Positions 11,143 through 38,541 of a stretch of DNA of 41,031 bases are shown here, in pieces. Origin of the DNA: Candidatus Yanofskybacteria bacterium RIFCSPHIGHO2_12_FULL_45_19b. Its GTDB lineage: Bacteria > Patescibacteriota > Minisyncoccia > 2-02-FULL-40-12 > IGHO2-12-FULL-4. The DNA lies in contig MGKD01000023.1 of assembly GCA_001794605.1 (NCBI GenBank), forward strand, positions 1 through 41,031. The letters run 5' to 3'. A model generated the notes under the pieces. That model was given only the letters and a program-made list of their open reading frames with translations. It made no database searches and had not been told where the DNA came from. How positions within the stretch are numbered: position 1 is the first letter of the stretch; every line of letters begins with the position of its first letter. The translations under genes were made by a program, and so were the position numbers.

Positions 11143-11882
11143 CAAAATATATTTCTTGGAAATTATTTCGGACTATACCTTATTCCATTTTTAGATGGAA
11201 TCCAACGTCTTATCCCGCTTAGCGGGATCCGTCAGTTTAAAACTGACAAGTCTCTACGGGGTTAGTGTACGAAACTTTCTTTTCTTTGAGTAATTAAGTT
11301 CTCGAAATGAATCAACCAACTTAAGCATCGCCGCAAAATCTTCTTCTTTTTCGATTTTGTTTTTTTGCTCAAGAATTTGTTTCATGAGAGCAATCTGTTT
11401 TCTTTTCAAAATAACAAATGGCTCAACCATTGATATAAATTCCAGGATGCTATCAATTTTATTAATAGTATATTCTAGAATTCCATCTTTTCGAGTTCTG
11501 ATGTAGCCCAAATTAATAAGTGAACAAATTTCTTCAAATTTAGAACGATCTTTAGCTGACTGAAATAGAATAATAGATGGTGCAACCTGAAACCCGTAGC
11601 GATAACCATCATTTGGCTTCGCACGTACATACACGCTACCATCTCCATCTAAAAATCCAGCTAAATAGGCTCTTTTAATTGCAGAAAGTTTATTCTTCAT
11701 ACACAACTTCCCTCGGTATTATCCTAACATATGACAGGTTAAGTTCAATGTTAGATATCCACCGATATGAGTTGGTTTTTCAATCTCGATTACTCGGGAA
11801 AGCCGCCGCTATTGTGTTATTTATCGGGTTCAGACGGTTCTATCCATGATTCATGATACCTACTTCATGATTCACATTCAGA
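11143..11882 (-). mobile_element. group I intron L2593
   Basis: Splits CAGACCGU|CGCAAGACAG. Terminal G and AGGUAUAGUCC core motif. Same site as the I-CreI intron. Confidence 0.92.
11254..11706 (-). CDS. I-CreI-like LAGLIDADG homing endonuclease
   Basis: YLAGFLDGDGSVYVRAKPNDGYRYGFQV parallels I-CreI YLAGFVDGDGSIIAQIKPNQSYKFKHQL. Confidence 0.93.
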   Translation of the reverse strand: MCMKNKLSAIKRAYLAGFLDGDGSVYVRAKPNDGYRYGFQVAPSIILFQSAKDRSKFEEICSLINLGYIRTRKDGILEYTINKIDSILEFISMVEPFVILKRKQIALMKQILEQKNKIEKEEDFAAMLKLVDSFRELNYSKKRKFRTLTP

Positions 11883-12258
11883 ACGGTCTGAACCCAGCTC
11901 GCGTACCCTTTTAATTGGCGAACAGCCAAACCCTTGGGGCCTTCTTCAGTCCCAGGATAGGGCGAGCCGACATCGAGGTGCCGAACTGTGCCGTCGCTAT
12001 GGACGCTCGGGCACAACCAGCCTGTTATCCCCGGGGTAGCTTTTATTCGTTGAGCTTCCGCGTTCCTACGAACCACGGTCGGATCACTAAGTCCTGCTTT
12101 CGCATCTGCGCGACATGTCCGTCTTGCAGTTAAGCCAGCTTGTGCCTTTGCGCTATCGCTCTGATGTCCATCCAGAGCTAGCTGACCTTAATGAACGCCT
12201 CCGTTACTTTTTGGGAGGCTGCAGCCCCAGCAAAACTGCCCACCAGCCACTGTCCCAA

Positions 12259-12370
12259 CCCAGCCCTCTAGGTGTGCGACGTTTTGCGGGAAAAAATTTC
12301 GAATAAAACAAACTATCCACCGAACGAAACTTTATCTTCCCGCGTTTAGTCATGCAACTAAAGGGCGGGG
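12259..12370 (-). other. about 105-nt stem-loop expansion of 23S helix 79
   Basis: Long imperfect hairpin (gccctctag...ctaaagggc) replacing the short canonical helix. Confidence 0.75.
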
Positions 12371-12641
12371 CCGGTTAGAATTACAAATTTTACAGATGAG
12401 TGTTTCATTGGCGTCTCCACCACAACCGAAATCATGGCTTCAAAGACTACTCACTACGCTACGCAGTAAAACTCGTAACCCAATAACAAGCTACAGTGAA
12501 GCTCCCGGGGTCTTTCCGTCTTGGTGCGGGTAGTCGGCATCTTTACCGACATTGCATTTTCACCAGGCTATTGGCTGAGACAGTCCCCCAGTCGTTACGC
12601 TATTCATGCGCGTGGGAACTTACCCCACAAGGTATTTCGCT

Positions 12642-13327
12642 TGACATGTTACAACAACGTGTTGTGGTATTCTTACCCTCTATGTCGCCATAGAGACCGG
12701 ACTATATCTTCTCGCTTCGGTTTATCATTCCGAATGAGTTCGACGTATAGTCTCTGAGGATTCTAAGACTTTATACTTTCTTCGATTCATCGTCTGAAGC
12801 AAAGATCGTACCTCATTCAATCCCTTCTCTGAACGATGTTTTCCCAAAATCATCATTTTGATAATTCTTCGAAAAACCAGAAAATCTTTTTGCTTATAGG
12901 TTTTCAGTTTATTTTTCTCAAAGAACGGAATAATTTTCAGATTAAGATCATCGATAGCTCTGACGCAATATTTTAACATTTGTTCATGATGATTATCTCG
13001 ACGAGTATTGAGATTTATGTAGCCACATTTGAAGAATTTCTCAATTCTTTTTAATGCGCCACGACTCCTTTCGCCTTGACTCACCACGAACTCTGGAAAT
13101 ACCTGCCAGCTTTCTCTTGTGGTTACTGTGCGATTACGAATTATACTTACAGTAAAGCACCCTTCACCATCGACAAAACCACTGATCCAACCTTCTAGTC
13201 TTAGTCTTTCCTGCTGATTGTCTGCACGAGAAGTATTTTCACTCATGGTATCATTATACCATGAGTAACCCTCGATTCTCAGAGTTTCCAGCATATAGTC
13301 GAATTTTATAAAAGCAGTTAATTACCT
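12642..13327 (-). mobile_element. group I intron L1931 (apparent terminal A)
   Basis: Splits AAAAGU|AGCGAAA. P1 AAAAGU/GCUUUU with U-G pair; UGCUGGAAA and AAGAUAUAGUCC core motifs. Confidence 0.88.
12725..13246 (-). CDS. single-motif LAGLIDADG homing endonuclease
   Basis: WISGFVDGEGCF; N-terminal ADNQQER overlaps the intron core. ATG at 13246. Confidence 0.93.
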   Translation of the reverse strand: MSENTSRADNQQERLRLEGWISGFVDGEGCFTVSIIRNRTVTTRESWQVFPEFVVSQGERSRGALKRIEKFFKCGYINLNTRRDNHHEQMLKYCVRAIDDLNLKIIPFFEKNKLKTYKQKDFLVFRRIIKMMILGKHRSEKGLNEVRSLLQTMNRRKYKVLESSETIRRTHSE

Positions 13328-13341
13328 ACTTTTAGACAGTT

Positions 13342-13639
13342 CATCCTTTTTATTAGTCTCGATGGATTCGATTAACTCACCATCGGACAGCCTCATGGTC
13401 GCCCATGAGATCGGACCATATCTTTCCGCCAACATCTTACGAAGTTTTGGCGGATCTGACGTATGGCCTCTGAGGACTCTCTGGTTTCCCAGGTTGCCTG
13501 CTGATTGTCCGTTGGTCGTCCGAAGCTCATCAGAGCGAAGGGGACCGCACCGAGCACATTTTCACCACTTCTGGTAGTGTCGGATTCAATCGGAGTTTCC
13601 AGCAAATAGTCAGATTTTATAACTACAACTGTCATGTTT
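13342..13639 (-). mobile_element. ORF-less group I intron L1917
   Basis: Splits GUAACUAU|AACUGUC. P1 AACUAU/GUAGUU, P10 GACAGUU/AACUGUC, terminal G. Confidence 0.93.
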
Positions 13640-13814
13640 ATAGTTACTGCCGTCGTTCACTGGCGCTTCAGGCCTCCGCAGTTCATCCGAAGACAAACCA
13701 CTTCAACCATTAACGTTCCAGCACTGGACAAGCGTCACCCTGTATACATCAGCTTTCGCTTTAGCACAGAGTTGTGTTTTTGATAAACAGTCGCCAGGGG
13801 TCGTTAGCTGCGGC

Positions 13815-13929
13815 CGTCCCAATGCCGACGTTGCCTTCGTGTTGAACTCCGCGCGTTGAGCATGTCCCATTCGGGACTTTGCCAAAGGCGCGGCATGTCA
13901 AAGACAAATGCAATGTCGGCACAGGGACG
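13815..13929. repeat. TIR hairpin element type A, in 23S helix 63
   Basis: 115 nt with about 10 differences from the copies at 15378 and 15765. Confidence 0.95.
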
Positions 13930-14476
13930 GCAGGCCTTATCCCGAAGTTACGGCCACTTTTTTGCCGAGTTCCTTAGCCAATAATCACCTGTTCGCCTTA
14001 GTACTATCATACTAGTCTACCTGTGTCGGTTTTAGTACGTTTTCGCTTAGACGCTGTAGAAGCTTTTCTAGGAAGACTCTTCAGTTGAATACCCCCATCC
14101 GAAGACAGAAGTTTAGTCGCCAATGAGTAGTGCCATTGAAGGCAGCGACCGGATTTGCCTGATCGCTATTCTAGCTGGTAGCTACATAAATCCAATAATA
14201 TGCTCAACTTTATTTTCTCCGTCACTCCATGATAAATCTAAACGAAGGGCCGGAATATTAACCGGCTGTCCATCGGCTTCCCCAGCTCGTAAGCTGGGTT
14301 ATCCTTAGGCGCGCCTAACCCTCCACTGATTGCCATCGCGGAGGAAACCTTAGACTTTCGGCGGCAGCGGTTTTCACGCTGCTTGCGGTTACTCATGCCT
14401 GCATTCTCCCTTCCTAACGCTCCATCCCAAGCCTCACGGCGGAACTTCGCTGCGTTAGAAATGCTCCCCTACCACG

Positions 14477-14600
14477 CGCCCCAGTGCCGAAATTGTCTTC
14501 TTGCCGGCCTTTGACCTGACTCCTCCCGCTGCCGAAATTGTAAAATCGGCAAGGGGGACGGGCTCAACGCTCGGCAAAACACAACTTCGGTACTGGGACG
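14477..14600. repeat. TIR hairpin element type B, in 23S helix 45
   Basis: 124 nt with about 10 differences from 16092-16215. Confidence 0.95.
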
Positions 14601-15134
14601 CATTCACGATTTCGGTGGTTAACTTAGCCCCGGTAAATTTTCGGCGCATTCGGCCTTCCTCATCCGAAGACGAGGATTGAACAGTGAGCTGTTACGCACT
14701 CTTTAAAGGATGGCTGCTTCTAAGCCAACCTCCTGTCTGTCTAAGGCAGAATACTTCCTTTAACACTTAGCTAACACTTAGGGACCTTAATCTGTGATCT
14801 GGGCTCTTTCCCTCACGACGATGAAGCTTTGCCCCCACCGTCTCACTACCATCCTTATCATCGAGGTATTCGGAGTTTATTTGGTAGGTCTACCGTAAAA
14901 CGGCAAGACGAACCAATTAGTGCTCTACCCCCTCGACTAACAGATGGCGCTGCCCCTAAAGGCATTTCGGGGAGAACCAGCTATTACCAAGCTCGATAAG
15001 CTTTTCACTTCGAACCACAGTTCATCCGATGATATTGCGCTATCAAACAGTTCGGACCTCCAGTCGCCTTTCGGCGACCTTCATCCTGACCATGGTTAGC
15101 TCGCTTGGCTTCGGGTCTTATACCAGATACTCAC

Positions 15135-15271
15135 CGTCCCAGTGCCGAACGCCCCGCTCCCGAAATTGCCCTTATCTTTTGATAGCAAGTCCCCACTAGT
15201 CTTTGGGACCTTGGGACTTAATGTCAAAAGACCGGTTCAATCTCGGCATTGGGACGCTCGGTACTGGGACG
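15135..15271. repeat. TIR hairpin element type C (doubled arms), near 23S helix 28
   Basis: cgtcccagtgccga-a-cgccccgctcccgaaattg ... tcggcattgggacg-c-tcggtactgggacg. Confidence 0.92.
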
Positions 15272-15377
15272 ATATGCGCGCTATTAACACTCGGTTTCCC
15301 TACGCCTGCGTCCTGACGGACTTAGGCTTGCAACTGGTATAAACTCGCAGGCTCATTCTTCAATAGGCACACCGTCA

Positions 15378-15492
15378 CGTCCCAACTCCGACATTGCCTT
15401 CGTGTTGAACTCCGCGCGTTGAGCATGTCCCGTTTGGGACTTTGCCAAAGGCGCGGTATGTCAAAGACAAGTGCAATGTCGGTATTGGGACG
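15378..15492. repeat. TIR hairpin element type A, in 23S helix 25
   Basis: Identical by eye to 15765-15879. Confidence 0.95.
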
Positions 15493-15764
15493 CTCCGGCT
15501 CTTTGTAGGCATATGGTTTCAGTTACTATTTCACTCCCCTAACCGGGGTGCTTTTCACCTTTCCCTCGCGGTACTAGTTCACTATCGATCACTAAAAGTA
15601 TTTAGCCTTGGACCGTAGTAGGCCCGGATTCGCCACGGATAATCTCCTCCATGGGTACTTAGGTAACAATACAAGAGTTCACTGACTTTCGCCTACGGGA
15701 CTATTACCCGCTGTGGTCTGCCTTTCCAGGCGTGTTCGGCTAGCTAGTGAATTTGTAACTCTTC

Positions 15765-15879
15765 CGTCCCAACTCCGACATTGCCTTCGTGTTGAACTCC
15801 GCGCGTTGAGCATGTCCCGTTTGGGACTTTGCCAAAGGCGCGGTATGTCAAAGACAAGTGCAATGTCGGTATTGGGACG
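15765..15879. repeat. TIR hairpin element type A, in the 23S H16-H18 region
   Basis: Identical by eye to 15378-15492. Confidence 0.95.
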
Positions 15880-15896
15880 ATGTACTATCCCTGCAA

Positions 15897-15994
15897 CCCC
15901 CCTCGACTCGGCGCTAAGCGCCTCGCTCGGGGCAAGCCAACTTTTTTAGATATTGGCTCGCCCTGAGTGAGACACGCAGTGTCGAATCGAAGGG
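15897..15994. repeat. palindromic element (ccctcgac/gccctgag family) expanding the 23S H16 region
   Basis: ccctcgact..gctcggggcaag ... ctcgccctgag..tcgaaggg; related to 23163-23186. Confidence 0.7.
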
Positions 15995-16003
15995 TTTAGG
16001 CTA

Positions 16004-16035
<32 letters not shown>

Positions 16036-16091
16036 TATGCTATTTATTTTCCTCTGGGTACTGAGATGTTTCACTTCCCCAGGTACGCCAC

Positions 16092-16215
16092 CGTCCCAGT
16101 GCCGAAATTGTCTTCTTGCCGGCCTTTGGCCTGGCTCCTCCCACTGCCGAAATTGTAAAATCGGCAAAGGGGACAGGCTCAACGCTCGGCAAAACACAAA
16201 CTCGGCACTGGAACG
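16092..16215. repeat. TIR hairpin element type B, replacing 23S helix 10
   Basis: 124 nt, adjacent to the H9 hairpin caatttgg/ccaaattg. Confidence 0.95.
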
Positions 16216-16671
16216 GTCAATTTGGTTTTCACCAAATTGGGTTTCCCCATTCGGACACCTCCGGATCAAAGCCCGCTAGACGGCTCCCCGAAGTTTATCG
16301 CAGTCACGCCACGTCCTTCATCGCCTTTTAGTGTCAAGGCATCCTCCATACGCCCTTCATTCCTTACAAGATTAAATGGCTCAGCCGCATGCTAAGCATC
16401 TAATCACTAACAAGATCTTACTTAATGCAATTTTTTACCCGCTATCCTTGTTGATACTTGGATAACATTTAACCAGTTTTCAAATTGCAGTCGGCTTAGC
16501 TACCAGTGGCTGGCTCCGGAAGAACCAATCACCGCTAGCCAAATTTCTGAAAAAAGCACTGAAAAAACCGCTTCCTCAGCGGCTCCAAAATTACAGAGAA
16601 AACAAGGAGGGTTTAGCCGCTTTGGATGTTATTGGATTGATGGGTTGTTTGCATAGATAACTGTGTTTATG

Positions 16672-17613: not shown

Positions 17614-17776
17614 CGTCCTGGTGCCGAAGTTGCACTTGCCTTTGGCACGCCGGGACAAGTTCCAGAAGGGATGGATTTCAACAAAAGGAAAAATATCAGG
17701 CACTGGGACGCTCAACGTCGGCAGGAGTAGATTCAACATGCGGTTCAACTTCGGCACTGGGGCGCTCGGCAACGGG
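17614..17776. repeat. TIR hairpin element type D overlapping the 3' end of rmuC
   Basis: cgtcctggtgccgaagttg ... caacttcggcactggggcg, with an internal ggcactgggacg arm. Confidence 0.88.
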
Positions 17777-18802
17777 AAGATGAATGACCTTATCTACTCG
17801 ATCGAGCATCAGATCCAAGCGCTTCTCCGAATCATCAAATGAACCCTTGGCATCTGACAAGTGTTTACCCAAACGCGCAAAGCCTTCGCCCAGTTTTTGT
17901 CCATCAATACTAACCCGCTCCAACTTCTTCAAAATTTCCTGCGTGCGTTGTGAAACCTCCATATCTTTAAACCAGTGCATAATCGCCGATAATGTTAAGA
18001 ATAGAGTATTAGGCGAAACGATGAAAACTTTCTTGCCACGAGCATAACTCGCCAAATCTAAATCTTTGTAATCCTTAGCCGTCGAGATTATTTCGTAATA
18101 AATCGCTTCCGCCGGGATAAACATCAAGGCTAAATTAACCGTACCTTCGGCCGGCAAAATATATTTACTAGCGATATCGTCAATCTCCCGTTTTACGTCG
18201 GTGGCAAAAGCTTTACGATAAGCATCCCGCTTAATTTCATCCTGCTCCCCCATTAAACGCTCAAAATTTTCGAGGGGAAACTTGGAGTCAATTGGCAGTA
18301 GAAAATTATTTGGCAAGCGCAATACCGCATCCACAGCCTCACCGCTTTTAAAATAATGTTGTAAGGTGTAACGCTCTTTCGGAAAATACTGACTGAGCGA
18401 AGCATCTAAAGAGGTCTCGCCCCAACGCCCGCGTAATTTTGGCGCTTTAAAAATCTCTTGGAAGCTGGCGACACTGCTGACCTTCTGTTGCACCTGGGAA
18501 ATATTTTCCCGTAAGCTGGTTAGCCCAGCGGTAAAACTTTCCACCTGCTTGTGCACATTTTCGCTTGCCTGACGCGTACTTTCACGGCTCTCTTTTAGCT
18601 GTTCTGAAACCAGGCCAATAGTTTCACGTAAGGCGCGGTTAGTTTCGCCAGAAATCGTATCCAGCCGTTGGTTTAGTGACGCTAAACTGGCAACTACCGG
18701 ATCAGCGGTTTGGTCTTTTTTTTTACTCTTGGCGCGGTATTGAATAGTGATAATTACCAGTGCAATTACCACTACCGCCCCCAATAGAATCTGGTAAAAC
18801 AT
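17696..18802 (-). CDS. rmuC: DNA recombination protein RmuC
   Basis: RGRWGE, IDSKFP, DIASKYI, MFIPAEAIY, SPNTL motifs. Confidence 0.95.
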   Translation of the reverse strand: MFYQILLGAVVVIALVIITIQYRAKSKKKDQTADPVVASLASLNQRLDTISGETNRALRETIGLVSEQLKESRESTRQASENVHKQVESFTAGLTSLRENISQVQQKVSSVASFQEIFKAPKLRGRWGETSLDASLSQYFPKERYTLQHYFKSGEAVDAVLRLPNNFLLPIDSKFPLENFERLMGEQDEIKRDAYRKAFATDVKREIDDIASKYILPAEGTVNLALMFIPAEAIYYEIISTAKDYKDLDLASYARGKKVFIVSPNTLFLTLSAIMHWFKDMEVSQRTQEILKKLERVSIDGQKLGEGFARLGKHLSDAKGSFDDSEKRLDLMLDRVDKVIHLPVAERPSAEVEPHVESTPADVERPSA

Positions 18803-19877: not shown

Positions 19878-20081
19878 ACTGCCGACATTGCTACTGCCGA
19901 GCTTGCGCACTAAGTAAGGCGTATCACCGGAAGACTGGGATAGAAGGTGCGGGGAATAAAGTAATCAATCATAATGCCGATATTGCAAGCCGTAGTTGAT
20001 CCAACCTCGGTAGTCTGATAACCAAAAGACTGTGACGAGGGGATAGATTTCAACCAAAGGGACAATGTCGGCACTGGGACG
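19878..20081. repeat. TIR hairpin element type D directly after the LOG stop codon
   Basis: tgccgacattg ... caatgtcggcactgggacg; 20040-20081 matches 17668-17710. Confidence 0.85.
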
Positions 20082-20822
20082 CTAAAACTCCCTGCGTTCA
20101 GGTGAGTGCTTGATAATTTGATAGGCATCCTCAGCGCTATTTACCACGCGATAGATCTGCATATCCTCCGAATCAATTGCCCGCTTGTTTTCATAAACCT
20201 CCTGCTTAATCCAATTTAATAATGGACGCCAGTATGTCTCGCCCACTAAAATAATCGGCGTAGCTGGAATTTTTTTACACTGTACCAGAGTGATCAACTC
20301 AAACACCTCGTCGAGCGTGCCAAAGCCACCCGGGAAATAAACATAGGCCTGCGCATAATAAGACAGCATCACCTTGCGCACAAAAAAATAGTGGAAAGAA
20401 ATAGCCTTGTCAACAAAACGATTGATACGTTGCTCGAATGGCAATTTAATATTCAGTCCGATTGAATCACCCACCTTGTCTTTATTAGGGTCAGCGGTTT
20501 CAATTCGTGCCTCCACCGCACCACGATTGCCTGCCTCCATAATACCAGGACCACCACCCGTGATAACCGAGTAACCATCTTTGGCCAATAGGTAGCCCAG
20601 GCGACGAGATTCTTCGTACCACTCATCACCACTAACACAACGCGCCGAACCAAAAAAAGTTACGGTACGTTTAAGATCAGCCATAAACTGCCAACCATCA
20701 ATGAACTCCGCCATGATACGAAAAATCCGCCAATGAAAAGATTGGCGCCAATCCTCAACTGGAGTTTTTTTCTCTGCTACCGGGAGCTTTGAGGCCGGTA
20801 GATTATACGACTCCTTGTGCAT
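20082..20822 (-). CDS. LOG family (TIGR00730-type) Rossmann-fold protein
   Basis: TGGGPGIMEA and PGGFGTLDE motifs. Confidence 0.95.
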   Translation of the reverse strand: MHKESYNLPASKLPVAEKKTPVEDWRQSFHWRIFRIMAEFIDGWQFMADLKRTVTFFGSARCVSGDEWYEESRRLGYLLAKDGYSVITGGGPGIMEAGNRGAVEARIETADPNKDKVGDSIGLNIKLPFEQRINRFVDKAISFHYFFVRKVMLSYYAQAYVYFPGGFGTLDEVFELITLVQCKKIPATPIILVGETYWRPLLNWIKQEVYENKRAIDSEDMQIYRVVNSAEDAYQIIKHSPERREF

Positions 20823-26084: not shown

Positions 26085-26151
26085 TGGCTAATGACAACTC
26101 ATAATTTAGATTTGGGTTTAGTCATTGATTAGTCATTAGGCATTTGTCATT
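26085..26151. repeat. 7-nt-periodic hairpin (aatgaca/tagtcat family)
   Basis: tggctaatgacaa ... ttagtcattgattagtcattaggcatttgtcatt. Confidence 0.75.
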
Positions 26152-27184
26152 CAAGTAGCTCCGCTACTCTTTCCACATGCTTCAGCAACATCGCACAATA
26201 GCCCCACTCATTATCGTACCAGCTAAATACCTTGATCAAATCCCCGCCCACCACCTTGGTTAGGGCCAGATCAACAATCGAGCCATGTGGATTACCCAGA
26301 ATATCACTCGAGACCAATGGTTCATCGGTGGTCATTAAAATTCCCTGCCACTCCGGTTGCGCCGCCGCCATGCGAAAAAGCTGATTAACCTCTTCAACAC
26401 TAGTGGATCGTTCGGAGACAAAAGTAAAATCAATTAGTGAACCGGAAATTACTGGCACCCGAATGGCCAAGCCATCAAATTTATTTAAAAGTTCCGGAAT
26501 CGAGCGGGTAGTCGCCTGCGCCGCTCCGGTAGTCGAGGGCACAATGTTTACTGCTGCCGCGCGGGCCCGGCGAAAATCATCTTTACGATCGGGGCCATCA
26601 ACCAACCCCTGAGTTGCGGTATAACCATGCACAGTAGTGAGTACGGCCTTTTTTATACCAAGATTTTTTAACATTATTACTACCACTGGGTTGGTAGCAT
26701 TGGTAGTACAAGAGGCATTGGAAGTAATCGCCCCAGTGCCGATATTATCTTTTGTTGAATCCATCCCTCCCGACATTGCACCAATCCCTGGTGTTATCAC
26801 TGGTGTTATATCATCCTTCGGTGGCGCCGTAATCACCACCCGCTTTGCTCCGGCCTTAATATGTCCTCTTGCCTTATCACTCGAATCAAACACCCCAGTT
26901 GCCTCCACCACAATATCGACTGACAATTGCTTCCAAGGTAAATCAGCCAGTTCCTTAAATCCAAAAACTGGAATAGTTTGACCATCTACTACTAGCGCGT
27001 CCTTTTTGGCCACTACCGTTCGGCCGTACTCTCGGTAAACCGAATCGTGTTTCAATAAATAAGCGAGATTTTCGGCGCTACCAAGATCGTTAACCGCCAC
27101 GATTTCTAAATCCGGCCGACCAAAAGCCTGACGAAAAAATATTCGCCCAATTCGGCCGAAGCCATTGATAGCAATTCTGGTCAT
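26147..27184 (-). CDS. gap: type I glyceraldehyde-3-phosphate dehydrogenase
   Basis: INGFGRIGR, SNASCTTN, WYDNEWGY motifs. Confidence 0.98.
   Translation of the reverse strand: MTRIAINGFGRIGRIFFRQAFGRPDLEIVAVNDLGSAENLAYLLKHDSVYREYGRTVVAKKDALVVDGQTIPVFGFKELADLPWKQLSVDIVVEATGVFDSSDKARGHIKAGAKRVVITAPPKDDITPVITPGIGAMSGGMDSTKDNIGTGAITSNASCTTNATNPVVVIMLKNLGIKKAVLTTVHGYTATQGLVDGPDRKDDFRRARAAAVNIVPSTTGAAQATTRSIPELLNKFDGLAIRVPVISGSLIDFTFVSERSTSVEEVNQLFRMAAAQPEWQGILMTTDEPLVSSDILGNPHGSIVDLALTKVVGGDLIKVFSWYDNEWGYCAMLLKHVERVAELLE
26729..26779. repeat. fragment of TIR element type D in-frame within gap
   Basis: cgccccagtgccgatattatcttttgttgaatccatccctcccga matches the reverse complement of 17661-17710. 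Confidence 0.85.
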
Positions 27185-32110: not shown

Positions 32111-33058
32111 CGGTATTACACAATACTAATGAAGTATGTTTAATTTTGGACTATATCACCATCCTCTTTTAATAAAAAGGATGCCTAGCGTTTTATGGAG
32201 ACTCAAGAGTCTCCATCCGACCAATCAATTGGTCGAGTCTCTGAGGGGTTAATTATAATTTTAGATGTTCGAACGGAGGAATCTTATACTTGAAGCACGG
32301 CAAGAGATATGGTTTTATCGTCTCGATAAATTTATCCCTACCTGCCACTCCAATATACAGCTCCGGATAGCGCACACCGCGACAAAGCGGAGCTTGCACC
32401 GAAGTAATAATCCCAAAATTTTCCTTCAAAACACCTATTAGCAGTCGATTTTCTTCTAAGGTAAAGCTGTTGGTAGATAGCGAATAATTATAGTGGCTTT
32501 TGGGCCGATAATCTAAACTACCATCATCCATATACCAAACCGCCAGACTTAGAGGATGAGTCAATATTTCTTTGATGTCTCTTGGAACAATTTTTTTACC
32601 ATCAGGATAAAAAGATTGTCTAAAGAAACACAGATCTTTGTTGGACGAAGTCATAAATTTCCATTGCTTATTGTCTTTGCGTTGTTTAGGTTCGCTTGGA
32701 CAAAAATTTGATAGATTTTCATACATCCAGAAAACATAATCCCTTTGCTTTTCTGAATGCTTTATCTCAAGATAACAATCATTATATCGATCACGATAGA
32801 GATAGCCATCTCCGAGTAATGTTCCAACTAATATCCGTTTTTGTTCAAAAGAAAGTTTGCTCATTTACTACATAATTATAGCAACTTCCCTGCTGATTTT
32901 CCAGTAATTTTGTTAATAAAATCAACAAAATTTTAATTCAGATTGTCACCCACTGGGGTACTGAATTATTGACTGGGTTTTCCAGCATATAAGCTAAGTT
33001 TTTCCTTATTGCCTTACGGCAATAGGTCGCGCCCCCGCCCGAAGTGGTGGGAGATTTC
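32111..33058 (-). mobile_element. group I intron S516
   Basis: Splits CUUCGU|GCCAGCAG. Terminal G; UGCUGGAAA and GAUAUAGUCC core motifs. Confidence 0.92.
32253..32864 (-). CDS. double-motif (LAGLIDADG_2) homing endonuclease
   Basis: LVGTLLGDG and AVWYMDDG motifs. Confidence 0.93.
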   Translation of the reverse strand: MSKLSFEQKRILVGTLLGDGYLYRDRYNDCYLEIKHSEKQRDYVFWMYENLSNFCPSEPKQRKDNKQWKFMTSSNKDLCFFRQSFYPDGKKIVPRDIKEILTHPLSLAVWYMDDGSLDYRPKSHYNYSLSTNSFTLEENRLLIGVLKENFGIITSVQAPLCRGVRYPELYIGVAGRDKFIETIKPYLLPCFKYKIPPFEHLKL

Positions 33059-33308: not shown

Positions 33309-33731
33309 AGGACCTAGGCTGCTCCAGAAGTGCCTTGCGGCTTTACTCTTGCGAGACCATCGGGAATTAGTCTGCCTTTCGGCAGATTATGCCCGGCTTC
33401 AGGGTACATACCAAGGTGTTACTAACTCGTTCGCCACTAACTTATCTCTTCCGTCGCCTTGATGTAATCGCAACTTCTTCCAAAATAAGTCCGTTCGACT
33501 TGCATGCCTTATCCACGCCGCCAGCGTTCATCCTGAGCTAGAATCAAACTCTCAATAATAGTAAATGAATAAATTCACTTACCTCCGATCTAGTTAACTG
33601 TAACAGATAACAATAACTTTCTTTTCACTTTTAATTTCACCAGTCTGACAAATTTTCAAGTTGCTATTGTCGCTTCGTTTTAGACAAGAACCTAAAAGGC
33701 CCGCCCTCCGGAAAAGACAACCACGATTATC

Positions 33732-33836
33732 CGCCCCAATTCCGAAGTTGCACCGTGCGTTGGGCTCGTCCCTCCCGAAGTTACAATATCGGCAAAGAGA
33801 CAAATTCAACAACAAGACAATTTCGGCACCGGGACG
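33732..33836. repeat. TIR hairpin element (type B-related) in the 16S leader
   Basis: cgccccaattccgaagttg ... caatttcggcaccgggacg. Confidence 0.85.
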
Positions 33837-37727: not shown

Positions 37728-38420
37728 CTACCAGCCTTTTTTCTCCAGCGCTTTTTCCGCCGCAATCTGCTGGGCTTCCTGTTTACTCAAGCCCTCCCCT
37801 TCGGCGGCTAACTCCTTGCCCAAATAGACGCCCACCACAAAACTACGGGCGTGATCGGGACCAGATTCTTTTAATACTTCGTAAGTGGGGGTGACTCCTA
37901 CTCGCTCCTGCGCCTCCTCTTGCAAACGACTCTTAGCATCACGGTAAAGTTCTTGAGCGATAATCTCTGGTAACTCGACAATAATAAAACGCTTAATAAA
38001 ATCCTCCGCCGCAGTGTAGCCCTGATCTAAATAGATGGCGCCAATCACTGCCTCCATCGCATTGGCCAAAATATATTGTCGCGCTCGGCCGGTGTCTTTG
38101 GCCTCACCCCGCGAGAGTAAAATATACGAGTTGAGATCAAACTTAGCCGAAATAGTCGCCAAAATATTAGCATTGACAATCGCCGCCCGCCAGTTGGTTA
38201 GTTCCCCTTCTGGATTAGGATAATTTTTGTAAAGATGGTCGGTTACCGCCAACTCCAAAACCGCGTCACCCAAAAACTCCAGGCGCTCGTTATGCTCTAG
38301 CTTCCAAGCAGTATTCTCGTTCAAATAAGAACGATGAGTAAGCGCTTGCAGTAAGATATTCTTATCCTTAAACTCGAGACCAATCTTGCCTTCTAGTTCC
38401 AATATCTTTTCGTCAGACAT
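37728..38420 (-). CDS. rnc: ribonuclease III
   Basis: NERLEFLGDAVL signature plus a dsRBD (GPDH..F, SKQEAQQ.AA). Confidence 0.98.
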   Translation of the reverse strand: MSDEKILELEGKIGLEFKDKNILLQALTHRSYLNENTAWKLEHNERLEFLGDAVLELAVTDHLYKNYPNPEGELTNWRAAIVNANILATISAKFDLNSYILLSRGEAKDTGRARQYILANAMEAVIGAIYLDQGYTAAEDFIKRFIIVELPEIIAQELYRDAKSRLQEEAQERVGVTPTYEVLKESGPDHARSFVVGVYLGKELAAEGEGLSKQEAQQIAAEKALEKKGW

Positions 38421-38427
38421 TTGTTTT

Positions 38428-38541
38428 AATGACAAATGACAAAGTGAGAATGACTAGTCAATGACAAAGTTCAAAATCCAAAATTTTTGTCATTTGAGCT
38501 TTAGATTTGATTAGTCATTAGTCATTTTAATTTAGTCATTG
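38428..38541. repeat. 7-nt-periodic hairpin (aatgaca/tagtcat family)
   Basis: aatgacaaatgacaaa ... ttagtcattagtcatt. Confidence 0.78.

Follow-up and report, generated by a model that had tools for sequence, protein, structure and literature searches.

The 23S rRNA gene of the window and its three 115-nt repeats

The window analysed here is a stretch of 41,031 nt that constitutes contig 23 of a 603,702-base draft genome (32 contigs) from a CPR (Patescibacteria) lineage, referred to below as G000. It carries a 23S rRNA gene, single copy in G000, and a 16S rRNA gene located about 15 kb from it. The 23S gene measures 4,551 nt, compared to the 2,925 positions of the Rfam model, and matches this model collinearly from end to end. 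It includes a group I intron and three copies of a 115-nt repeat:

11819-16369, minus strand: 23S rRNA gene (Rfam LSU_rRNA_bacteria, 1824 bits, model positions 1-2925, not cut off)
13392-13704: group I intron within the 23S gene (Rfam Intron_gpI, 60.7 bits)
13815-13929, minus strand: element A1, 115 nt, 10 differences from A2 and A3; replaces a hairpin at E. coli ~1710-1748
15378-15492, minus strand: element A2, 115 nt, used as the reference for the repeat; replaces the helix 25 tip (E. coli 541-552)
15765-15879, minus strand: element A3, 115 nt, identical to A2; located near E. coli 289 (312/313 in the Rfam model), where it replaces a hairpin of domain I

Both rRNA genes also carry long insertions of another kind. 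An intron-type insertion of about 1 kb (12642-13637) is located around the group I intron of the 23S gene, and the 16S gene includes an insertion of about 800 nt (32220-33017) with a 203-aa ORF (32253-32864) that probably encodes a homing endonuclease.

The 115-nt repeats had been noticed in a preliminary description of this DNA, which reported two identical copies and a third one about 91% identical. A repeat search and a script indeed found A2 and A3 to be identical letter by letter over 115 nt, and A1 to differ from the A2 reference at 10 positions, with start-to-start spacings of 387 and 1563 nt. In rRNA sense, the mismatches of A1 fall at positions 7, 8, 10, 22, 36, 58, 61, 100, 106 and 107; seven of them affect the outermost 22 nt of one or other arm, two the apical loop and the remaining one another part of the element, in agreement with the statement that differences occur mostly in the arms. 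As also described, the three copies have the same orientation within the minus-strand 23S gene, and we add that they are located on the antisense strand of the window. Their flanks are unrelated, as judged by script-based comparison of 15 nt on each side. The lack of a consistent target-site duplication was confirmed on a larger set: none of 12 elements tested (see below) showed a duplication of at least 3 nt, and a 2-nt GC was common to both flanks in two of the 12. Each A copy is predicted to form a near-perfect hairpin of -63 kcal/mol (z -8 to -10) and none of 200 shuffled sequences was as stable. The warning given in the preliminary description, that such direct repeats carry a risk of deleting essential rRNA, is a fair inference.

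A palindromic family with conserved inverted ends

The three 115-nt copies make up one subfamily, A, of a larger set of palindromic repeats whose ends are conserved. Elements of this family are 80-190 nt long, non-coding and palindromic. Their inverted ends read CGTCCC..T.CCGA..TTG and conservation extends to about 35 nt, the middles being variable. The end motif occurs 19 times in the window compared to 0.21 expected (the largest count in a shuffle being 2), which excludes chance, and 43 times in the whole genome. Searching the 603,702-base genome with an nhmmer profile of the ends (E <= 0.1) retrieved 12 paired elements and 21 single ends. Among the latter, two are inner arm copies of elements B1 and B2 described below, and one, on contig C21, resembles a coding motif. 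Half of the paired elements (6 of 12) sit in the 4,551-nt 23S gene. The same ends are found in unrelated contexts, including outside rRNA. That the family is genome-wide is the main point missed by the preliminary description.

Among 25 distinct elements, hardly any variation was seen in the blocks CGTCCC, T, CCGA and TTG. The left arm starts with CGTC in 20 of the 25; of the other five, four have a C at position 3 and one has a T at position 2. Pairing at the ends involves positions 1, 2 and 4 in 24 of the 25 elements and position 3 in 21. Positions 7, 8, 10, 15 and 16 of the arms vary and are paired in only 11-17 of 25. Thus, the ends are kept for their sequence and not for pairing alone, which would also fit a binding site for a host protein. 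Nested copies leave stubs of 15-21 nt of the older arms.

The elements occupy six helix tips of the 23S rRNA

Besides the three A copies, the 23S gene includes three other elements of the family:

14477-14600, minus strand: element B1, 124 nt, in helix 45 (E. coli ~1177); the apex is in turn a miniature version of the arms
15135-15271, minus strand: element C, nested, near E. coli 654
16092-16215, minus strand: element B2, 124 nt, in the E. coli 133-171 region; Rfam aligns the B2 arms as the helix itself

B1 and B2 differ at 10 of 124 positions. Element C is composed of a full inner element (15150-15256) located between two 15-nt stubs of outer arms (15135-15149 and 15257-15271). Within G000, cargos A and B are confined to the 23S gene. 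All rRNA copies fold in rRNA sense at -63 to -81 kcal/mol (z -8 to -10), a stability equalled by none of 200 shuffles.

In E. coli numbering, the six sites are ~133-171 (B2), ~289 (A3), 541-552 (A2), ~654 (C), ~1177 (B1) and ~1710-1748 (A1). These positions were obtained from blastn anchors against rrlH together with a 14-sequence MAFFT alignment, which replaced pairwise MAFFT alignments against E. coli that had misplaced several inserts. The hairpin of the A1 site is presumably helix 63, and we take the region of the B2 site to be helix 9/10. At all six sites the native distal hairpin is absent and the element begins at the helix base. In relatives, the A1 site reads CCTGCC-GCGCGCAAGCGCG-GCC, where G000 has the element instead, and the A2 site carries a native hairpin of 20-25 nt. 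Except for the rRNA itself, Rfam gave no match on the elements.

Copies in spacers and in protein genes

Copies or derivatives are also located in the window outside the 23S gene:

17614-17783: composite or nested copy lying upstream of the 23S gene; an arm-like stub comes after it (17765-17783)
19940-20081: copy with one full end, abutting the stop codon of a minus-strand ORF (20082-20822); its left end lacks the outer CGTCCCAG
26690-26768, minus strand: family-derived in-frame stretch within the GAPDH gene 26147-27184 (nhmmer E 0.00029)
33732-33836: element D, 105 nt; it lies some 180 nt upstream of the 5' end of the 16S gene, whose match stops at 33551

The stretch in the GAPDH gene encodes GIGAMSGGMDSTKDNIGTGA just before the catalytic-Cys motif SNASCTTN. 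Here, 20 aa of family origin stand in place of 11 aa, i.e. 9 aa more than in five relatives. More generally, 10 of 16 non-rRNA places tested lie in stop-free frames of at least 190 aa, and 12 of the 16 reach a cut-off of 120 aa. Stop triplets, counted on both strands of 24 elements, are halved (92, whereas mononucleotide shuffles give 195), and open frames number 78 of 144 where 38.7 are expected, a count made across 24 mutually related elements that do not constitute an independent sample. Downstream of the EF-G gene, two tandem family elements (G000 C7:11243-11485) are included in a 163-aa stop-free frame.

Ribosomal-protein operons carry copies as well. At the L14-L24 junction of G000, a family copy of about 118 nt extends right up to the L24 start codon. 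In three relatives (G002, G008 and G004) this junction measures only 4-15 nt, and in two others (G007 and G003; L063 and L065) other palindromes of about 240-260 nt, unrelated to the family, are found just after the L14 stop codon. On this comparison, the junction is a hot spot for several hairpin families. A second G000 copy ends at the S11 start codon. At both genes the end abuts the start codon with no spacer, ..GGGACG being directly followed by ATG (L24, C24:6160-6281, L046; S11, C9:14880-15040, L033). The same zero-spacer arrangement was read by eye at four places in other genomes (L073, L084, L097 and L111), at genes starting with MSRIGKK and MKVRASVK. Such a hairpin may bring an upstream ribosome-binding site beside the start codon.

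Support from public sequencing runs

Contigs from two public DNA runs of two studies (X1 and X2) bridge, with 0 mismatches, both ends of B1 and the right ends of A3 and B2, and contigs of both runs span the whole of element C, also with 0 mismatches. The interior of A (91-99 nt of it) is joined to the right flank of A3 without mismatch in X1 (15789-16023) and in X2 (15781-15993). Among the public contigs listed, none bridges either junction of A2. The preliminary description had named a collapsed-repeat misassembly as what would undo its reading. This is made unlikely by the collinearity of the 23S gene with model positions 1-2925 and by the contigs that bridge five other junctions and the whole of C.

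A bin over the interior of A3 showed about twice the depth of single-copy contigs, contig depth being an unreliable measure of copy number. Some apparent joints skipping A2, C and B2 were considered as empty alleles and rejected, as their sides are shorter than 30 letters and helix sequences of other organisms lie between them. In two metatranscriptome runs (X15 and X17), available as contigs that can show neither ends nor absence, B1, C, A3 and the neighbouring insert, all covered by the DNA runs, had no cover. Short RNA contigs of these runs stopping at 13929 were not retained as transcript ends: with 3 mismatches in 60, their ends probably mark the point at which organisms diverge.

Distribution among relatives

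23S loci were obtained from 17 of 31 sampled genomes, G000 and 16 relatives. Twelve loci from same-order relatives showed native short hairpins or unrelated inserts at the six sites. No family match was obtained with the end profile on 29 of the relatives' 23S loci (best E 0.34), and none at E <= 0.05 on 14 metagenome contigs that share a 23S expansion with the window. In parts of the rRNA, the identity of the latter reaches 95%, and native hairpins are present at their A1 and A2 sites. All these presence/absence comparisons were made with other genera, and no site was seen both filled and empty within one population. Since relatives have native hairpins or other inserts where G000 has the family, the copies are lineage-specific gains and not vertically inherited cargo. 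Strict vertical, site-specific inheritance of each cargo, the other outcome that the preliminary description had set against its own reading, was likewise not seen: relatives, all of other genera, do not carry these cargos at these helices.

The shared expansion (window 15880-15990) is a non-family insert of about 110 nt near E. coli 276, common to G004 and the 14 metagenome contigs. On this distribution, it is an older, vertically kept expansion lying beside the young inserts.

The hot spots of relatives are filled by short native hairpins, heptamer-array palindromes, AT-rich palindromes, ORFs or tRNA genes. In G003 and G018 (L013 and L005), helices 25 and 45 carry inserts made up of inverted heptamer arrays of the GACTAAG type or of AT-rich palindromes. 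Complete tRNA genes were found within helix-45 inserts of relatives at L122:3764-3839, L010:1194-1269, L003:2873-2945 and L011:3461-3536. They correspond to Glu-CTC, Ala-CGC, Arg-CCG and one tRNA with an odd 4-nt anticodon. The tRNA of L122 lies in rRNA sense, and its processing would by itself split the 23S precursor. As the rRNA hot spots of relatives are filled by different palindromic families, the process looks general, the occupant being the family active in the lineage.

Allowing at most 2 mismatches, the ends were matched in six of nine genomes of the same taxonomic family, G000 included (G000 32 matches, G008 27, G003 9), and in 27 of 105 genomes of the order, compared to 2 of 105 with a reversed control. 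One 0.6-Mb genome of the order (G029) has 103 end matches and none with the reversed control; it also encodes six Y1_Tnp genes. In an even sample of the phylum, with at most 1 mismatch, six of 301 genomes matched, and none of 15 genomes of the same class belonging to other orders, and the idea of a CPR-wide family was rejected on these counts. A search for the exact 19-mer in species-representative genomes retrieved 51 stretches (42 titled as CPR groups, 2 unlabelled and 7 non-CPR), about 9 of which may be chance matches by rough estimate. Paired ends were present in 14 of the 51, and one stretch lies immediately after E. coli position 275 of another 23S gene. The breadth of the family cannot safely be judged from record titles, as G033, titled Saccharibacteria, is the same as G029 and falls within the order of G000. 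A 23-nt core of cargo A had no match among metagenome contigs, a search from which records near the window's genome were possibly left out. The distribution of the family is patchy and bursty.

Probable mobility of the family and candidate machinery

Taken together, these results suggest that the palindromic family is, or recently was, mobile in this CPR lineage, where it occupies six 23S helix tips, spacers and protein genes, its copies persisting where the hairpin spares the shape of the host molecule and A2 and A3 being the youngest. We give this reading a probability of about three in four. The family would have moved at the DNA level and would have colonised the rRNA after the lineage split from the sampled relatives. 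Copies would persist where a self-folding hairpin leaves the shape of the host molecule intact, tolerated places being surface helix tips of the rRNA (including helices 25 and 45), gaps between cistrons and loops of proteins. The recent copying proposed in the preliminary description is supported by the absence of any difference between A2 and A3, compared to 10 of 115 between A1 and A2 and 10 of 124 between B1 and B2. A2 and A3 are the youngest copy pair. This pair could have arisen by copying of A into a second helix, or by overwriting of a resident element via recombination between shared arms.

Neither a longer element nor a transposase with these ends was found in G000 (a 92% complete genome), and a search for a TnpB-type domain in it gave no match. 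G000 has four RAYT-like Y1 (Y1_Tnp) genes, each flanked by its own, unrelated palindromes. The end profile found no match within 1.2 kb of the four genes, and on this result (best E 0.32) a RAYT-flanking palindrome which resembled the arms by eye was rejected. Across the order, a Y1 gene is present in 20 of the 27 genomes with an end match and in 33 of the 78 without, counts that are inflated by kinship; G107 has 13 end matches and zero Y1 genes. Co-occurrence of the family with Y1 genes is loose and constitutes a lead only.

Alternative origins of the copies

For the identical pair, the preliminary description had also considered arm-guided gene conversion: both helices would already have been occupied and recombination between shared arms would have copied one whole element over the other. 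We regard this as a serious possibility, somewhat short of an even chance. Identity stops exactly at the element ends, the ends are common to all subfamilies over 19-35 nt, and the two copies lie only 387 nt apart. Moreover, the six sites show a clean hairpin-for-hairpin state with no native remnant, which is easier to explain for a copy with zero substitutions if its site was occupied beforehand. However, no mosaic or partial tract was found and A1 and A2 differ at sites all along the element; the blocks common to the arms are short, with variable positions between them, and therefore offer poor homology; and none of the relatives compared carries another cargo at either site. Conversion rivals only the account of how the identical pair arose and is compatible with mobility of the family.

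Some observations weigh against the mobile reading. None of the 12 elements has a target duplication of at least 3 nt, no donor copy of cargos A and B is known outside the 23S gene, and a native hairpin that is gone, instead of split, at six sites is not what simple insertion predicts. Clean replacement, seen even at the copy with zero divergence, slightly favours the overwriting of an occupied site or a hairpin-replacing mechanism. The clean replacement at six sites, the 15-21-nt basal stubs in the nests and the constant lack of target duplication led us to a bolder proposal, in which entry of the family into structured DNA would take place by exchange of the distal portion of a hairpin already present, through a hairpin-targeting mechanism perhaps run by RAYT-like Y1 enzymes. 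Such families would then be the general source of the short non-intron inserts found in most CPR 23S genes, and in the transcript six RNase III substrates would cut the 23S rRNA of G000 into seven or more pieces. We hold this proposal tentatively and consider it rather unlikely. If true, hairpin-targeting insertion would be a mechanism not described for bacterial repeats.

To return to mobility as the preferred reading, a different objection is that the elements would not be selfish, the ends being sites kept by the host for protein binding or processing, which organise maturation of rRNA and mRNA or translation starts. The invariant sequence blocks with their unpaired variable positions, the direct abutment of ends on the start codons of L24 and S11 (and, by eye, at the four places in other genomes) and the enrichment in rRNA and ribosomal-protein operons would be expected under this hypothesis. 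It is nevertheless difficult to reconcile with orthologous sites that are empty or filled by unrelated palindromes in related genera, with copy numbers ranging from 0 to 103 among genomes of one order, and with copies inside coding sequences and in either orientation relative to transcription. We consider it an improbable explanation.

Still less probable, and very unlikely in our view, is an origin as old rRNA expansion segments, inherited vertically after an ancient duplication within the gene. The insert 15880-15990, common to G004 and the 14 metagenome contigs, shows that stable lineage-specific expansions exist. However, the relatives sharing it carry no family elements, the same ends occur outside rRNA and A2 and A3 show zero differences; this origin is contradicted at the genus level. 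Finally, an assembly artefact, with identical copies produced by mis-threading of a repeat in a short-read metagenome assembly, could be imagined in a 32-contig draft with elements that share their ends and with A2 junctions crossed by none of the listed public contigs, and is hardly credible given the collinear 23S match with the expected helices between the copies, the mismatch-free joining of the A interior to the A3 right flank in two runs of two studies, and a 115-nt repeat shorter than typical reads.

Presumed fate of the hairpins in the rRNA

RNase III is the enzyme that removes classical 23S intervening sequences (IVSs), and the window encodes one:

37728-38435, minus strand: RNase III gene (PF14622 match 37977-38366, E 4.8e-44)

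By the precedent of IVSs, and since CPR rRNA insertions are stated to be removed from transcripts (Brown et al., as cited in a passage of PMC11270868), RNase III would excise the long rRNA hairpins and leave the 23S rRNA in pieces. By this analogy, the hairpins probably fragment the mature rRNA.

Short inserts in CPR rRNA genes

Our literature searches found no paper describing this palindromic family. According to the relevant passage of PMC11270868, most CPR 23S genes carry insertions, of which the long ones are introns with homing endonucleases, and short ones (<200 bp) are only guessed to be IVSs. Short unclassified insertions are listed in Tsurumaki 2024 and not treated as repeats in its main text, which lacks the word stems 'palindrom' and 'hairpin'. 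The present data suggest a concrete origin for some of the short unexplained rRNA inserts of such bacteria, namely a genome-wide palindromic family that lands in, or is kept at, harmless places: rRNA helix tips, cistron junctions and protein loops. Inserts of this kind lengthen and diversify rRNA genes and confuse rRNA-based surveys and assemblies.

Comparison with known systems

Classical 23S IVSs are known in Salmonella, Yersinia, Campylobacter, Leptospira and Coxiella. In Campylobacter, they form stem-loops and fragment the 23S rRNA, as reported in part of PMC2801512, and helices 25 and 45 are named as classical IVS sites in passages of PMC2801512 and PMC11270868. The family resembles them in several respects. 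A2 (helix 25) and B1 (helix 45) sit at such IVS-accepting helix tips, as extended stem-loops in place of the native tips; computed folds predict an extended stem-loop in the precursor; presence is sporadic, the family missing from 29 of the relatives' 23S loci and from the 14 metagenome contigs, all of other genera; and an RNase III is encoded. In contrast to classical IVSs, one family here fills six helices of a single gene, with identical copies in two of them, and is also present in the spacers of operons and, with the reading frame kept, inside protein genes; its hairpins are presumed to be excised.

Rickettsia palindromic elements (RPEs) are likewise palindromic, about 100-150 bp long, found both outside protein genes and in frame within them, and have no known transposase. 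In-frame insertion in protein genes was also found here, as judged by the GAPDH gene, the 10 of 16 places in long stop-free frames and the 92 stop triplets compared to 195. According to Di Nocera 2013 (PMC3733652), a CGTC tag is found at the ends of two of these elements, RPE-4 and RPE-6. Rickettsia nevertheless belongs to an unrelated phylum, and the likeness is one of description. We know of no heavy colonisation of one rRNA gene in Rickettsia.

The CGTC tag is also shared with CGTC-tagged REPs and the REPIN/RAYT system, and two inverted ends make up one hairpin of about 100 nt, like an HH dimer or a REPIN. Di Nocera 2013 (PMC3733652) defines the CGTC-REP unit as a stem of 8-9 bp and a loop of 4-5 nt that directly follow the tag. 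No such stem and loop appeared when 24 arms of the family were folded alone, and the arms folded less well than their shuffles (mean -3.17 compared to -5.03 kcal/mol). Membership among CGTC-tagged REPs was therefore rejected: the tag is shared, but the REP stem is missing. The family was not assigned to REPIN/RAYT either, as the four Y1 genes are flanked by other palindromes.

Bacterial MITEs such as the Correia elements of Neisseria offer a further likeness, with terminal inverted repeats, a variable core, a length of about 100-150 bp and a location in transcribed spacers. For Correia elements, cleavage of the hairpins by RNase III is reported to be possible (PMC2649163). Terminal inverted repeats of 19-35 nt are present on both sides of the elements described here. 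Unlike MITEs, they show no target-site duplication (0 of 12 at 3 nt or more). In G000, a 92% complete genome, no parent insertion sequence bearing these ends was seen. On these sequence features, the family may best be described as an RPE- or MITE-like palindromic family.
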